Part shown: positions 6,378 to 57,984 of the stretch, one piece after another
Position numbering within the stretch: the stretch's first letter is position 1
Layout of the letters: every line of letters begins with the position of its first letter
Made by a program: the position numbers and the translations under genes
Notes under the pieces: generated by a model
The model's database searches: none
What the model saw: only the letters and a program-made list of their open reading frames with translations
Told to the model about the DNA's origin: nothing
DNA from: Botryllus schlosseri
Lineage: Eukaryota
Reading direction: 5' to 3'
DNA: 64,000 nucleotides
Assembly: GCA_051294905.1 (NCBI GenBank)
Contig: CM119371.1
Coordinates: 1,490,001-1,554,000 of the forward strand

Positions 6378-6551
6378 TAGTACATTGAACGCTTTTGTAT
6401 TCGACATTTCGTGCTGGTGACATCATATTTTGTGCTACAATTGTTGACATGCAATGTTCTTTTGAATTCTCTACCTGTTGCTGACGATTACCCCTGACGA
6501 GTGTAAGCCGAGAATATTCGGGTTCATTTCAATATAAATATACTATTCAAT
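6378..6551 (+). mobile_element. Short PLE 3'-end fragment with a degenerate hammerhead (6490-6523, GAAA>GAGA)
   Basis: Matches 57422-57594. Flanks tagttagtacattg / tagttagtaaattg resemble a TSD. Confidence 0.85.
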
Positions 6552-18312: not shown

Positions 18313-18346
18313 ACCCGAATATTTTCGGCTGACACTCGTCAGGGGT
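18313..18346 (-). ncRNA. Minimal type I hammerhead ribozyme (third PLE copy)
   Basis: acccgaatattttcggctgacactcgtcaggggt is the same motif with an intact core. Confidence 0.82.
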
Positions 18347-18612
18347 AATTGTCAGCAACTAGTAGAGAAATGGAAAGAACATTGTATATCAACAATCGTA
18401 TCACAAAATATGACGTCACCAGCATGAAATTTCGTGAATGAGAGAGCGTTCAATGTACTATTTTTAGGTGGTACACGAACTCCTTTTGTTGACAGAGTTT
18501 TGGTTGGTGTATTTTGATAAAAGTCGACACAAATGGAATTGTGAACGGCCTCGCTCAACGATTCGAAATCTGTTGTCTCGATAATTATTCGCACAAATCG
18601 GATCATCTAACA

Positions 18613-25600: not shown

Positions 25601-28600
25601 TTCAGATTCAAAAGTTCCCCCGCACATGCTGATGGCGGAATGATTGATGGTGATCTGAATAGAAGATGTCGAAAACGTTACAAGAATGTATTCAAATACA
25701 TGAATACAAGCCTGAAAGCAAAGTCGTAATGCAGATACGGGCTATACAGATAGTGTGGGCAATAAAGAAATGGATTTGGTTACAGTACCGAATTTCTACA
25801 AATCTTCAGTTCCTAGAATCCTTGAATCTCAAGCCTAAATCAAGAATAATATTAGAGTTTAAAATTATGTTTGATATGGTAGATACCGACCATCTTTATA
25901 TCGGTATATCTATTACCGTAATTTTCCAAGTATTGTACGCCCCCATTTATAATACGCACCCTTTAAAATAGCATGCAAATTCTGGGAAAAAACCTGTACC
26001 AATGTATAGTACGCACCCTGCATTCGCAGTACATCAAAAGTTGCTTTAGTTGACCATGTCATTATCTTTTGGGATGACACTGTTGAACAATCATGACATA
26101 ACGATCGCTAATAAATATAAAATCAACGGCATTGTCTCTAAACAATAGTAGATTGAAGCCAAAGCCTGCGAGGCCTGCGGCGTGATAGTTCAGGCCAGCG
26201 ACATGACATCTTGCGCACGAGGCCTATTACACATGCGATTGCTCAGGTTAACAATCATGTCTTGCGCACCAAGTCTGTTGAAGATGCGACTGATTACGCA
26301 AGTGATTATATCTTGCGCACATGGTCAATTGAATATGCTATTGTTAAGGCCTGTCATCGACGCGATGAATTAGCGAGGATTGCTGCGCTTGCAGCAATCA
26401 ATGACCTAATTTTGATCACGTACAAATGGCAAACTAACTCAACATTAGGTCACGTGCTGTGCAAGGCTGTGCTGTGCAGTTATAGTTTTGAGTTTTGGAT
26501 GAGGAGTAGGCTACAGATTTTTTAAGCCGAGTAGTTTGTAGGCCTACATGTCCAGTTGAAGAGCAGCAATCCTGGATTGAAAGTAAGCATAGATGCAGCA
26601 ACATACGATTTGCTTGCTGTTCAGCGCTTCAACACAATTTGTCGATTCTTCTGGGTCTTGAATTGGACGAAAGTACATCACTTCCACATGCCGGTGCAAC
26701 GAATTGGTGGCGCTCTGAATAGAAGATGGCAAAATCGTGACATCAATGTATTGAAATACCTGAATGCCGTACATACAGGAGACCGAGGAGAGTACGAAAT
26801 ATACGATGGATATGGATCTGATGACTATATACATTGTGAGGGCAATATAGAGACACTAGACCAGTAAAGCGTTTTTTTTTTCACATGTCAAAATTTTTTT
26901 AAATTGTAGCGTTAGATCAAAAATAGTCAAAATTGTTCATGAAGCCAAAATTTTTCTGACGTCTGCATTTCGTTTGTATCGTAGATTTTGCACTGTCGCT
27001 GAGCTTATCATTTGATATTTTACAGCTTGTGGCCTACTTTATAGGCCTACCATTGTAAACTGCTAATTGTCTGCTCATTGTGAATCATAAACGGTAAAAT
27101 AAAACAAATAGGTAGACATAATGTTATGATCAACGTACCGAAATATTCTAACTGAAGAAAGACCTCTTGGGCATTGCATCATTTTTGTATTAGGAAGCAC
27201 ATGATGAAAAATTGTGACCTTGAAAATAAGATATATATTAACCCCTAAAAAATATCCCTTAAATATTTCACTTTTTGTTTTGGTCTTCAAATAATGTTGA
27301 ATTGCATAAAATCTCGGGGCAGTTCCATGTCATCTGTAAGAAAAGGTATAATAATTATAAGGGATGTATACAGTAGACACCCAGATTGAGATAGATGGCG
27401 ACATGAATGCCACTCAAGTAGAATAATGAAATATTTTCAAGCAGAGTCAAGGTGGTAGCAAACATTGTTGCTACTCAAGAACAATACAGTAATGAAATAT
27501 TAGCTGGGAGAGTCTAGAGATAGTTCATAACATTGATGCTAATCAATATAGTTGGTGAATGTTTCAATTGGTGGCAAAAATTTCCAAGTAGACAGAAATG
27601 AGAGGGAGAATCCTATAATATTGTCACACTTGACTGATTTCTATACACAATGACCCCCACTCGAGCTACATTTAGGGCCGAGCATCAAACATTATTAGGC
27701 CTAATCTCTTACACGACAGAATAGACCAATCTTTATACCATAGCAAAGTGAACAGGATTTTTAGGTCCAAGTAGCTCAATTACAGACGAAATTTCAAATT
27801 TGCCTTGGAAAAGCCTTTCAATTTCACAAGTGTATGATCATTAAAAGCTTGCTTTTCATCATGCTATAACTTGGACACTATACTTATGGTATGTAATTCA
27901 TGCAAATAAATTGATATTTACCAAGATATATTTCACTACGTTATGAACCAAACTTCTGCAAAATCTGAAACTTGATGGAGTCCAAATCTATTTTCATGGC
28001 ACAAACAATCCCTTACGCTGGATTGATCACGGCTCAAGGTTGAACTTGATCAGACTTCGCAGCATCATTTTACATTGAGACACATATTATCTATAGGACC
28101 AAGACACAGTGATTTGCGTACTAATACTCGAATCTGAATCGAACAGTCCTACCGTAACTGTAATTATTCGAGTCGGTTTTTTGGACTAATGAAACTTTAC
28201 GCCCAGTTCCATCAAAAAGCTATAATTGCATCAATTTTCTGAAACCTCGATTGGTCGTATCGCAACATACGAAAAATGGTGTACAAAGTTTGCACATTAT
28301 TGTAAATGATATTTCTGTGTAGCTGGATCGATTTGCAACATTGTCACGAAGTCAAATAAAGTATTTTCAAAAAATACCTTGTCATCATCATGTGGTGAAG
28401 AGCCGGTCTTATGTTTCATAGTTGCATGAAAAGTAGGACACATACTCAAACGTTTAGGTCTCCCAGACTCCATATACTTGTATCGTCATCATGAGTGATT
28501 ATCAAATACTTGATGTGAAGCCAGACTACAATCACTCATGTAGGCCTACCGGTATTCGATTTTGCCCAGATGTAAGCCTGTAATTACGAGCAAACCTTTT

Positions 28601-54055: not shown

Positions 54056-55856
54056 ATAGCCACTGAAATCTAAACATTTTTTGTACAGCCTTAATGCAGA
54101 GGACATGTAGTATAATGCTTTCTATCACGACTACGGCGTCATGGATCACGAGCTGTCATCACGTCACAAGTCTCCGCATACCCACATAAACTATACTTCG
54201 GCAACTATATGCTTGTTAGTACGTAACTAAATCATAGAATCGATCTCACTTCCCAATCCAATTTTCCAAATAGCGATTCAATCCGACGATGTCCGAGAAG
54301 TGAACGTAGTGCTTTTGCTGGGAAATTGTTGTGACGCAAATCCACTTCCTTCACCTGCAACGATGGAAATATTTTATGAAACTAGGGTACTAATCGTAAA
54401 AGACAGTATACCAGATGCTATTTACGTTACGGCCGAAGGATAACCAATACAACGTACATTACGGAGCCAATGCTGATTGTTCAACTATTCGGGAACATGT
54501 GTCACATTCGATATAACTCGAGAATCTCTAGTGATAAAATGTGCGCACTGAGTTCACAGGTTTACGTAAAATGTATCGCAAAGTAGTTCTTCATAGAAGT
54601 GAAAACGCAACGCAACACAAGGAGAATTAAAGTGACAAAAATATGGCTCTGATATCTGGTTTCGCAGCAAAATGTCAGTTTTGGGTCAACCGGTCCCTGG
54701 CTCCCACAGAAACCTGAAATGGGTTTGAATATTGATGAACCAAATTCCAATGTCACCGCTTATAGTTGAATCTATCTTATTCCTCACAACATATATCGGT
54801 AGTCACCACAGTTTTCACGACTCCGACTCCATCGCGCGAAGATTAGCCAAACTCCGACTCCACAGCCCTGGTTACAACCCCGTCATAATCCTGATTTAAA
54901 TGTCCCATATTATATCGACTTTACTTGATTATAGATAGTGCACTGTAGTACACTGTTACATGACATCATCGAGAAGTGGCCTCGTGGCCATTTTTGGTAT
55001 GGCACACTGCCAAAATCAATATGAACAGACCAACACCGAATTTTGCGCAAAATTTACTGAGGAATAGGATGATCAAGTGATCAGCCGTTAGCCGCCATCG
55101 AAAACGAAACAGTTATCGCGCTTGACAGGGGGTTGTAATTGTAGCAAATGGCCTGAAGGCCGCAATTTCACGGTAAAATTGACATTGGAGAATATAAAAT
55201 AAAAGTAAATATTTGAATGCCAACCGAGAATGTTAGTAAACTGTCTAATGATATCATCATCTCATCACCTATCTCAGCATGGAACACAGTTAACGTTACC
55301 ACAGACACAGCGGCTTTGCGTGAAATCCGCAATTCGTTAGGTATAGGCCAGCGGTTCTCAACCAGGGGTCCGCGGACCCTAGGGGTCCGCGAAGCAATTT
55401 CAGGGGGTCCGCGAGACCTCTAGATTTTTCAAATGGTTGTTAACCTTATATTATTTTATTTTTAAATTTGAGAAAGCATGGGGCAGTTTCGCACCACAAG
55501 TGCTAAAACCTCATGACTCATATCATCATAATATTCGTATGACATGAACTATCGTAGTGTGGAAAATCATTTCCATTGCGAATTTTTCAATAACCTGCTG
55601 ATAGAAACATATTGCTGTTTAGAGACGTTTTGTTAGGGTTTGTGGAAAAAATAAAAATATGGAGATAACGTCAATCAGGGTGACTTCATAATGTCTGCGA
55701 AACCTTCTCGATGCGAAGTTGTCAGTACAATAAAATTAGTGAACAGTCGTTTGAGAAAAAAATGCCGGAGTATTTCCCTAATTTGTCCCAATGGAAGGAT
55801 TGAAACCTCGCCACGAAATTTATTTATTCTGTGATATACACAACCACTATTTTAAC

Positions 55857-55945
55857 AGCTTCTTGAAGGTAGAGAACTGCAATATACAATTGAATAGTAT
55901 ATTCATATTGAAATGAACACGAGTATTTGCGGCTGACGCTCGTCA
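55857..55945 (-). mobile_element. Degenerate PLE terminal fragment (tail plus eroded hammerhead)
   Basis: Diverged match to 56394-56482. Confidence 0.75.
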
Positions 55946-56453
55946 TAAATAAGAGATTGATATATCTGCCCTTAAAGCTCGACTATCAGATTTTGCACAT
56001 TCTTATTGCGGATTCCCTATCGCCAAGGCTGGTTTTTTGATGAACAAGGAGCGTTTCGTTGCTATCAAAGCATTACGCTCCAACCCTGAAATTCATATCA
56101 CCAGTTATATTGGTATGCAGCCTTGTCTTGTTAATGTTCAATTGTTCACGGTCGAAAATGTTTGCTCGTAAATATATATGTCAACCCGAACATAACAAGT
56201 CGTTCCTGACAGTTTTTCTCAGGTTGGAAAGCTTGGATCCATTCTTTGGCGCAGAAAATTTGTCTATACTTTTAGATTAAGATTTCACTTTGACAGTATA
56301 AACTCTCTGCGGCTCGCGATTTGTATGTTGCCATCCCTGCGCTAGCTGCTGGACATGATATGTTCATAAAATATATGTTTCTTCATTTTGAAGAGCTTCT
56401 TGGAGGTACAGAACTTCAATATACAATTAAATAGTATATTCATATTGAAATGA

Positions 56454-56487
56454 ACCCGAATATTTTCGGCTGACACTCGTCAGGGGT
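56454..56487 (-). ncRNA. Minimal type I hammerhead ribozyme (left arm copy)
   Basis: Exact reverse complement of 57534-57567. Confidence 0.85.
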
Positions 56488-56588
56488 AATCGTCAGCAAC
56501 TAGTAGAGAATTGGAAAGAACATTGTATATCAACAATCGTATCACAAAATATGACGTCACCAGCATGAAATTTCGAATGAGAGAGCGT

Positions 56589-57006
56589 TCAATGTACTAT
56601 TTTTAGGTGATACACGAACTCCTTTTGTTGACAGAGTTTTGGTTGGTGTATTTTGATAAAAGTTGATTCCAAGGCACACAAATGGAATTGTGAACGGCCT
56701 CGACCTACGATTCGAAATCGGTCGTCTCGATAATTATTCGCACAAATCGGATTATCCAACAGATGTTTGCCGATGGCAGAATTAATTGCCTTTGATCGAT
56801 CAGCATCAATCTTAAGTGGATGAGTTAAGGGTGAGCTTTTCACATCGCGTGACGCACGTGTTCTGATAAATCTGGGGACATGTTGGTTTATGCGGTCCTG
56901 CAGACGTCTTGACGTTCTTCCCACGTAGCCACAATCACAGTGGCACCTATATTCGTACACTACATTACTTTGTTGAAGTGCAGGAAGCACGTCTTTGCGT
57001 GTTGAA
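56589..57006 (-). CDS. Mirror copy of the PLE GIY-YIG domain (left arm)
   Basis: The ORF track translation is identical to the + arm from STRKDVLP onward. Confidence 0.85.
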
Positions 57007-57432
57007 CTGCTCCCTTCAACACGCAAAGACGTGCTTCCTGCACTTCAACAAAGTAATGTAGTGTACGAATATAGGTGCCACTGTGATTGTGGCTACGTGG
57101 GAAGAACGTCAAGACGTCTGCAGGACCGCATAAACCAACATGTCCCCAGATTTATCAGAACACGTGCGTCACGCGATGTGAAAAGCTCACCCTTAACTCA
57201 TCCACTTAAGATTGATGCTGATCGATCAAAGGCAATTAATTCTGCCATCGGCAAACATCTGTTGGATAATCCGATTTGTGCGAATAATTATCGAGACGAC
57301 CGATTTCGAATCGTAGGTCGAGGCCGTTCACAATTCCATTTGTGTGCCTTGGAATCAACTTTTATCAAAATACACCAACCAAAACTCTGTCAACAAAAGG
57401 AGTTCGTGTATCACCTAAAAATAGTACATTGA
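57007..57432 (+). CDS. GIY-YIG endonuclease domain, C-terminal part of PLE ORF (5'-truncated, no true start)
   Basis: LPSTRKDVLP..SNVVYEYRCHCDCGYVGRTSRRLQDRINQH...SAIGKHL...F.IV.R....LESTFIK..QPKLC.QKE matches the PLE GIY-YIG pattern (VVY..C.C..YVG.T.R.L..R..H; SAI..H; LE..I...P.L). Confidence 0.88.
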   Translation: MLPSTRKDVLPALQQSNVVYEYRCHCDCGYVGRTSRRLQDRINQHVPRFIRTRASRDVKSSPLTHPLKIDADRSKAINSAIGKHLLDNPICANNYRDDRFRIVGRGRSQFHLCALESTFIKIHQPKLCQQKEFVYHLKIVH

Positions 57433-57533
57433 ACGCTCTCTCATTCGAAATTTCATGCTGGTGACGTCATATTTTGTGATACGATTGTTGATATACAATG
57501 TTCTTTCCAATTCTCTACTAGTTGCTGACGATT

Positions 57534-57567
57534 ACCCCTGACGAGTGTCAGCCGAAAATATTCGGGT
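57534..57567 (+). ncRNA. Minimal type I hammerhead ribozyme (PLE-associated)
   Basis: ACCC-CTGACGA-G(TGTCAGC)C-GAAA-ATAT-TC-GGGT: stem I ACCC/GGGT, intact CUGANGA and GAAA core, palindromic AATATT stem III, UH cleavage site after C57563. Confidence 0.85.
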
Positions 57568-57984
57568 TCATTTCAATATGAATATACTATTTAATTTCTT
57601 CATTTTGGTGCCATAAATGTTACGAATGTATTCGGCAATCCTCGTTCATATCAAAACGAAGACGTGGATTTTCAAGACACGGCCTATAGTACTTCAAGAA
57701 ATACAGCAGCAAAATTAGCTTTGAAGTAATAAAAGTCTACCAATTTCTACATAAATCGTATGAGGTTATTTTCAAGAAAAATCATTATTTTCCTGTTTAT
57801 CACAAGCATACAGTTCATATTTGCATAAGACATGAAGGTTGCACCATATTAGAGCAAAAGTTGAACTCAAACTTGAGGGGGTCCGCGAGGGTCCGTGACG
57901 GTCAAAAGGGGTCCGCGAAACCAAAAAGGTTCTTTTCTTCTCAATAGTATTCCCACACAATCTGAATGCCCTTTACCTGGATAA

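Follow-up and report, generated by a model that had tools for sequence, protein, structure and literature searches.

Small hammerhead ribozymes have been described from metazoan Penelope-like elements (PMC4209133); they are type I motifs which lie in the repeat after the reverse transcriptase-endonuclease reading frame, with a helix I of 4-5 bp, a conserved G10.1-C11.1 pair and a palindrome at 15.2-16.2 but no real helix III, an arrangement implying that they act as dimers. They occur in thousands of copies, often as inverted pairs, and reportedly cleave poorly alone. Helix II of the published motifs is a hairpin of 6-8 bp, an extra base lies between A9 and G10.1, and the descriptor used to search for them asked for a stem II of at least 3 bp (PMC4209133). 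A review from the same laboratory presents Penelope hammerheads as being without the characteristic tertiary interactions (PMC6155905), and another study mentions elements with an ‘HHR core’ not matched by any stem/loop descriptor or with no canonical hammerhead (PMC8557442). For one Penelope-like element tested in vitro, it was reported that the hammerhead cut only with protein, that ribozyme mutants had no effect on insertion and that RNA-seq reads did not terminate at its cut site (PMC11167929).

A hammerhead with a 1-bp stem II has been characterized from bacteria or metagenomes (PMC3088659); it is a type II monomer with a normal helix III, in which loop I pairs with the 3′ tail that follows stem II, a 6-bp Watson-Crick helix links the stem I and stem II sides, and the stem lengths are constrained. 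Its activity was lost when the pseudoknot was shortened or mutated and was rescued by compensation, and a pseudoknot between stems I and II was predicted in about 40% of hammerheads (PMC3088659). Pseudoknotted core helices and a short linker joining the stem I and stem II sides are also features of the non-circularly permuted hammerheads SGC, CSG and GCS (PMC10085705).

Here we analysed a 64,000-nucleotide stretch of Botryllus schlosseri DNA (contig CM119371.1, positions 1,490,001 to 1,554,000; hereafter the window), which carries at 57524-57567 a hammerhead resembling the metazoan Penelope motifs in type, position, helix I length, G10.1-C11.1 pair, palindrome, copy number and inverted pairing. 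In contrast to the published motifs, its stem II is 1 bp long, it has no extra base between A9 and G10.1, and the partner of loop II lies upstream of stem I. The Botryllus form therefore falls outside the published min-HHR definition on two features, because the descriptor and the published motifs (PMC4209133) need a hairpin stem II and an extra base after A9. It has the single-pair stem II, the 6-bp linking helix and the constrained stem lengths of the PMC3088659 ribozyme but is of type I, pairs the 5′ tail before stem I with loop II, has a dimer-type helix III and resides in an animal-type retroelement; since helix II has its 3′ side on the continuous strand and takes its partner from the 5′ tail of stem I, it can be regarded as the type I counterpart of that design. 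It shares the pseudoknotted helix and short linker of the SGC, CSG and GCS types, whereas its blocks keep the classic type I order (CUGANGA, GAAA, cut site) with only the 5′ strand of helix II displaced, and this order rules out a non-circular permutation. We consider that the motif is probably the hammerhead module of a young, very abundant Penelope-like retroelement, with a helix II that is a pseudoknot instead of a hairpin.

A type I minimal hammerhead at 57524-57567

Direct reading of the letters confirmed a type I minimal hammerhead at 57524-57567 (+), 5′-GCUGAC-GAUU-ACCC-CUGACGA-G-U-GUCAGC-C-GAA-AAUAUU-C-GGGU-3′, including every part that the earlier note had named, namely a full core, a 4-bp stem I, a 1-bp stem II and a palindromic stem III. 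In plus-strand order, the pseudoknot upstream strand GCUGAC (57524-57529) and the linker GAUU (57530-57533, with G at 57530 and AUU at 57531-57533) precede the stem I 5′ strand ACCC (57534-57537), which forms 4 bp with the 3′ strand GGGU (57564-57567), and the core box CUGACGA (C3-A9, 57538-57544). G10.1 (57545) stands directly 3′ of this box, with no extra nucleotide after A9, and makes the single pair of stem II with C11.1 (57553), while the bases enclosed by this pair are an unpaired U (57546) and the pseudoknot 3′ strand GUCAGC (57547-57552). There follow GAA (G12, A13 and A14, 57554-57556), the helix III palindrome AAUAUU (57557-57562) and C17 (57563), and the cut is predicted between 57563 and 57564. 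All hammerhead core bases are present, that is, CUGANGA, GAAA, A15.1-U16.1, H17 at the cut site and G10.1-C11.1. The segment G-UGUCAGC-C can form at most 1 bp in cis, as opposed to a helix II hairpin of 6-8 bp; the helices round the core are a covarying stem I of 4-5 bp, a stem II of 1 bp plus the 6-bp pseudoknot, and a helix III that exists as an intermolecular palindrome only.

Searching the window with the pattern CTGANGAG-N7-CGAAA-N4-TH and allowing up to one mismatch returned six matches versus 0.05 expected, a number reached by none of 100 shuffles. Four of these belong to the family (57538+, 56458- and 18317- exactly, 6494+ with one mismatch); the remaining two, at 25655+ and 44810-, look like chance and were set apart. 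The search with hammerhead models that had been proposed as a check was negative, as the Rfam models gave no match at gathering score and none at E values up to 10, a result that says little because the same models also missed ordinary Penelope hammerheads in metagenome loci. Taking the upstream CUGACGA as the core was rejected as a parse, for it lacks a stem I, and its core and helix II would be separated by 6 and 2 unpaired bases.

Pairing of loop II with the strand upstream of stem I

The helix between the upstream strand and loop II comprises 6 bp (57524-57529 with 57547-57552) and is separated from stem I by 4 nt, where 5 nt had been given before. The complementarity of loop II to an upstream GCUGAC(G/A) claimed in the earlier note held for these 6 bp, which are kept by compensation across three families, but not for the seventh pair, which is not conserved. 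This pair is G·U in the 57524 copy and A-U in the copy at 18.3 kb, where it goes back to mutation of G to A within a CpG of this one dead copy, and the sister families have A or G opposite G at this place.

Sister families were retrieved by a search from which the loop of the main family was excluded, and this yielded 246 + 265 further motifs genome-wide as compared with 2 + 3 in the control. Family 2 reads ACUGGC-GUU-CACUG-CUGAAGA-G-A-GCCAGU-C-GAAA-AGCU-U-C-CAGUG and family 3 begins ACUGAC-GUU-CGCUA-CUGAUGA-G-A-GUCAGU-C. Each of the three families leaves its first loop base unpaired and has, at positions -14 to -9, the reverse complement of loop bases 2-7; protein identity is 56% between families 1 and 2 and 76% between families 2 and 3. 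Consensus positions C3-A6, G8, A9, G12-A14, A15.1 and U16.1 are identical in the three families, with C, A or U at position 7 and C or U as H17; this core identity holds for the family consensus only, because the search patterns forced those letters within rows. The helix III palindrome is AAUAUU in family 1 and AAGCUU in families 2 and 3 as well as in the metagenome locus L093. Variants with double changes were also found, namely ACUAAC/GUUAGU (L045), ACUGGU/ACCAGU (L055) and UCUGGC/GCCAGA, the last in two inverted pairs located on two contigs, and intermediates between paired variants carry G·U.

Two candidate counter-examples were dismissed. The AGTTAT.../GTTAGT type without an upstream complement turned out to be one 5′-truncated copy within another repeat, with identical flanks in all four places fetched (L073-L076), and the GCAAGT type, which has a G·A mismatch, carries G at position 17 and has identical flanks in both of its places (L081 and L082), marking it as a duplicated dead copy. 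The hammerhead of L073-L076 is of family 3, truncated from the 5′ side to just before stem I. The G that directly follows the upstream strand (57530) is common to the three families, recurs at position 1279 of L093 and is replaced by A in the metagenome locus L153; no partner was found for it.

For covariation analysis, 103 instances (the window and loci L001-L082) were reduced to 54 distinct 49-nt rows and no row was dropped; several rows are 5′-truncated and many came from searches demanding a mutated loop. Among these 54 rows, which are related to each other and from which the structure itself was derived, the six pseudoknot pairs are 84.0% paired versus 7.4-33.6% with the partner slid by 1-3 columns, and the covariation score is 0.298 versus at most 0.101 after sliding. 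Five of the six pairs show changes on both sides, resulting from few, mostly family-level events, of which at least five are independent compensations. None of 500 shuffles attained the paired percentage or the score of the real rows, and 28 of 500 attained the number of double-change pairs. Stem I has both-side changes in four of its five pairs in the same rows, the centre of the palindrome covaries between UA and GC (pair 39-40: GC 28, UA 24), and when stem I and the palindrome are included, the structure as a whole shows the same covariation behaviour as the six pairs. Loop mutations in single dead copies are almost never compensated, as expected of decay after insertion, and add no support. 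The pairing inferred in the earlier note is kept by compensatory changes across the three families. Judged from the alignment, covariation supports the pairing and not its sign, as an inhibitory helix would covary alike.

The pairing was also followed in metagenome DNA that had not been used to form the idea: 24 relatives were aligned and 80 metagenome loci encoding relatives were scanned. On the coding strand, these 80 loci contain nine motifs of the form CUGANGA-N7-11-GAAA; two of them, in the unrelated loci L093 and L153, are of the G-N7-C form, and both have the upstream complement. L093, where the motif lies about 180 nt past the reading frame, has UGACGC/GCGUCA with six of six Watson-Crick pairs, and L153 has UCUGAC/GUCGGA with five Watson-Crick pairs and one G·U, which was read by eye (the script handled Watson-Crick words only). 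Both loci were read directly and stand outside the covariation counts; when L093 is added, there is a compensated change at all six helix positions. Weaker look-alikes occur in L084, in which an A-U closing pair lies inside a palindrome, and in L099, which is in a different register, and an ordinary hairpin helix II was seen in at least eight other metagenome loci. Directly past the hammerhead of L093, at 1319-1365 and 1385-1420, the model of the histone 3′ stem-loop matches twice, both times below the gathering score (27.7 and 18 bits versus 34; E values 0.0005 and 2).

Possible roles of the upstream helix

In the pseudoknot reading that we favour, stem II would be the single pair G10.1-C11.1, and six of the seven ‘loop II’ bases would pair with the six bases lying 4 nt upstream of stem I. 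U57546 would form a one-nucleotide bridge crossing the deep groove as in H-type pseudoknots, in which one nucleotide can span 6-7 bp. The 6-bp helix would then stack on G10.1-C11.1, take the place of the 6-8-bp hairpin that forms helix II in other Penelope hammerheads, and be joined to stem I by the 4-nt linker, linking the distal ends of both stems like the pseudoknot of other hammerheads. What we observed is the sequence, the copy numbers, the covariation and the recurrence in other lineages, while the stacking geometry, an activating role and cleavage are inferred. The active form would be a dimer, because helix III (AAUAUU or AAGCUU) forms only between two copies, which agrees with the dimer model of Penelope hammerheads (PMC4209133), and the element's protein would probably help. 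The calculated stability of the upstream helix is -7.4 kcal/mol versus -5.4 kcal/mol for the competing core hairpin. The predicted fold of the monomer is inactive (core hairpin plus CCGAA/UUCGG, -12.2 kcal/mol) and is not better than that of shuffles (z = -1.0).

Footprints of cleavage were sought in RNA reads and in genomic copies. The RNA examined came from a bulk run and a single-cell run labelled as this species, of which about 6% and about 3%, respectively, were covered, and no pile of read starts or ends was listed at 56457/56458. Both strands are covered to equal depth at the element 3′ end (window 56374-56578), and of the placed reads of the bulk run 98% continue into unlike sequence; this run-on into unlike flanks together with the equal strand depth indicates read-through of dispersed copies. 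Nor do the 5′ ends of genomic copies accumulate at the cut site. In 198 copies a base other than C precedes GGGUUC..., and of the 100 listed of these about 90 are C17 point mutants and about 10 have unrelated upstream DNA.

The upstream helix could also be an off-switch, which closes a hairpin round the stem I strand and the CUGANGA box until the ribozyme is opened by a protein, by another copy or by transcription running past it. Such a switch would fit the same covariation as well as the rank of the helix, at -7.4 kcal/mol, as the most stable local element; it would also suit the poor cleavage of Penelope hammerheads alone (PMC4209133), in one case only with the element's protein (PMC11167929), and the missing cleavage footprint in reads and genomic copies. 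However, without the helix the ribozyme has a 1-bp stem II and zero contact of stem I with stem II, so that nothing would be left to switch on. Moreover, the tested precedent with the same numbers, 1 bp and 6 bp, requires its pseudoknot for activity (PMC3088659), and all three families hold the helix at -14 to -9, with a bridge of one base throughout. The earlier note had offered a stabilising pseudoknot and an inhibitory hairpin as alternatives; the pairing itself is kept by compensation and covariation cannot separate the two, but a stabilising pseudoknot would fit the precedent of PMC3088659 better than an inhibitory hairpin, and we regard the off-switch as rather unlikely. We judge as unlikely, too, if by a shade less, that the module serves chiefly for protein recognition or as a signal for reverse transcription at the 3′ end of the element RNA, with the hammerhead core kept for binding or folding and not for cutting. 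Copies terminating 33 nt (or about 70 nt) past the motif would fit an internal start of reverse transcription near the ‘tail’, and in the element studied in vitro ribozyme mutants left insertion intact and no RNA-seq ends lay at the cut (PMC11167929), in line with the lack of cleavage footprints in the reads and copies here. This is opposed by a consensus core which, at the level of the family consensus only, is identical over 56-76% protein identity and varies at position 7 as hammerhead rules predict, and by a palindromic helix III that is kept via a compensating change. Given the inactive predicted monomer fold and the lack of a cleavage footprint in reads and copies, an off-switch or a mainly protein-binding role retains some probability beside the stabilising pseudoknot.

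By a further account, the pairing is a by-product, the upstream GCUGACGA being a duplicated core box and loop II matching the core by chance. The loop of family 1 can also pair with its own core (CUGAC/GUCAG, -5.4 kcal/mol) and the upstream strand resembles the core box; this double match is why the upstream strand looks like the ‘second CUGACGA’ for which it had been taken. The resemblance proved peculiar to family 1, since family 2 has ACUGGCG there, with ACUGGC as its upstream strand, and a loop that pairs with only 3 nt of its own core, while the upstream strand of L093 is UGACGC. In addition, the core:loop II hairpin has both-side changes in none of its pairs and 428 of 500 shuffles reach its paired percentage; thus, the upstream helix covaries and the core:loop hairpin does not. 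A by-product is already contradicted by the families, the covariation and the metagenome loci, and we hold it to be highly improbable.

A pseudoknotted helix II is a known hammerhead device, and in the literature searched we found no description of a pseudoknot in Penelope hammerheads; Lunse et al. (2017), reportedly a survey of Penelope-associated small hammerheads and variants, may cover the pairing. With the pseudoknot reading, the published picture of minimal, poorly active hammerheads that have no tertiary contacts and were searched for as hairpins would be incomplete, as it would have to take in a lineage of thousands of copies with a covarying pseudoknot helix II. Hammerhead chemistry as known would be unchanged, and the motif would offer a compact natural design (1 bp + 6 bp) for a type I, dimer-type setting, as well as a route to re-searching elements seemingly without a canonical ribozyme. 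It is a doubtful, tentative extension that Penelope-like elements hold a widespread, overlooked hammerhead class which forms helix II with a strand upstream of stem I and would escape hairpin descriptors and Rfam models. If true, some of the elements with an ‘HHR core’ only or without a canonical hammerhead (PMC8557442) may carry the pseudoknot form, and the pseudoknot may supply the contact of stem I with stem II that Penelope hammerheads were thought to lack.

The host element and its copies

The motif lies about 100 nt (102 nt) after the stop codon (57430-57432) of an open reading frame at 56977-57432 (+), which corresponds to the 3′ end, the endonuclease part, of a Penelope-like frame; the copy itself begins at 57015, the inner edge of an inverted repeat. 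Compared with Pfam GIY-YIG, this frame gave an E value of 0.023, below threshold, and the frames tested ranged from 0.0025 to 0.023, all below the cut-off. Longer genomic copies with the same C-terminus scored 32.9 bits (L003, with a frame of 464 aa) and 47.2 bits (L059) for RVT_1 versus a cut-off of 29.6, and the protein collection contains relatives with a length of about 840 aa. The traits found further include an inverted 5′-truncated partner, a partial tandem (537 nt) and a short tail past the repeat, and inverted 5′-truncated partner copies, partial tandems and a short tail are described for Penelope-like elements (PMC8557442). From these sequence features, a Penelope-like element with RVT_1 followed by a GIY-YIG-like C-terminus, inverted 5′-truncated partners and a short tail past the ribozyme is supported. 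Accordingly, of the previous assignment as Penelope-borne and located after a GIY-YIG stop, the former part stands through RVT_1 in the longer copies, while the frame's own GIY-YIG match is sub-threshold.

Within the window, 56425-57006 and 57015-57596 are the 100% complementary arms of one 582-nt inverted repeat with an 8-nt spacer. The mirror arm at 56425-57006 (-) bears an identical ribozyme at 56454-56497 (-), and the element runs on into a further unit on this strand. The motifs at 57534+ and 56454- represent one event and not two, because they lie in the arms of one perfect inverted repeat, and the 100% identity suggests that both arms arose in a single insertion event. An independent intact copy lies at 18313-18356 (-) with the upstream strand GCUGACA. 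The three places reported as intact (57534+, 56454- and 18313-) thus have exact cores but count as two events only. The two places reported as decayed (6490+ and about 55914-) are indeed so: the copy at 6480-6523 (+) has two disabling changes, C>A in the loop and GAAA>GAGA, and that at 55888-55945 (-), which on the minus strand follows the 56483 copy 537 nt further downstream, is 5′-truncated inside the core and has GAAA>GCAA.

Genome-wide, the 26-nt core occurs exactly 4,456 times in the 495.5-Mb assembly (2,244 + 2,212) and the full 44-nt motif 2,539 times (1,311 + 1,228), with none in the reversed-pattern control in either case, and since the copies are nearly identical, the family is young. 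The last 33 nt of the 57524 copy occupy 57564-57596 (+) up to the arm terminus at 57596; many copies stop here and others about 30-40 nt further, and the flanks of copies diverge after ...ACTATTTAAT. Copy ends fall into two classes, about 33 nt and about 60-70 nt past the predicted cut, with loose ends seen at 56387-56398 and around 56430, and these two classes may represent the variable Penelope ‘tail’. Same-strand tandem hammerheads are found 537 nt apart in the window (55850-56482, -) and 212 nt apart in L029 (L029/L030), and the short units enclosed by two such ribozymes are reminiscent of retrozyme-like non-autonomous units. Across the genome many hammerheads are paired in -/+ orientation at distances of 70-1,100 nt, including pairs of family 2.
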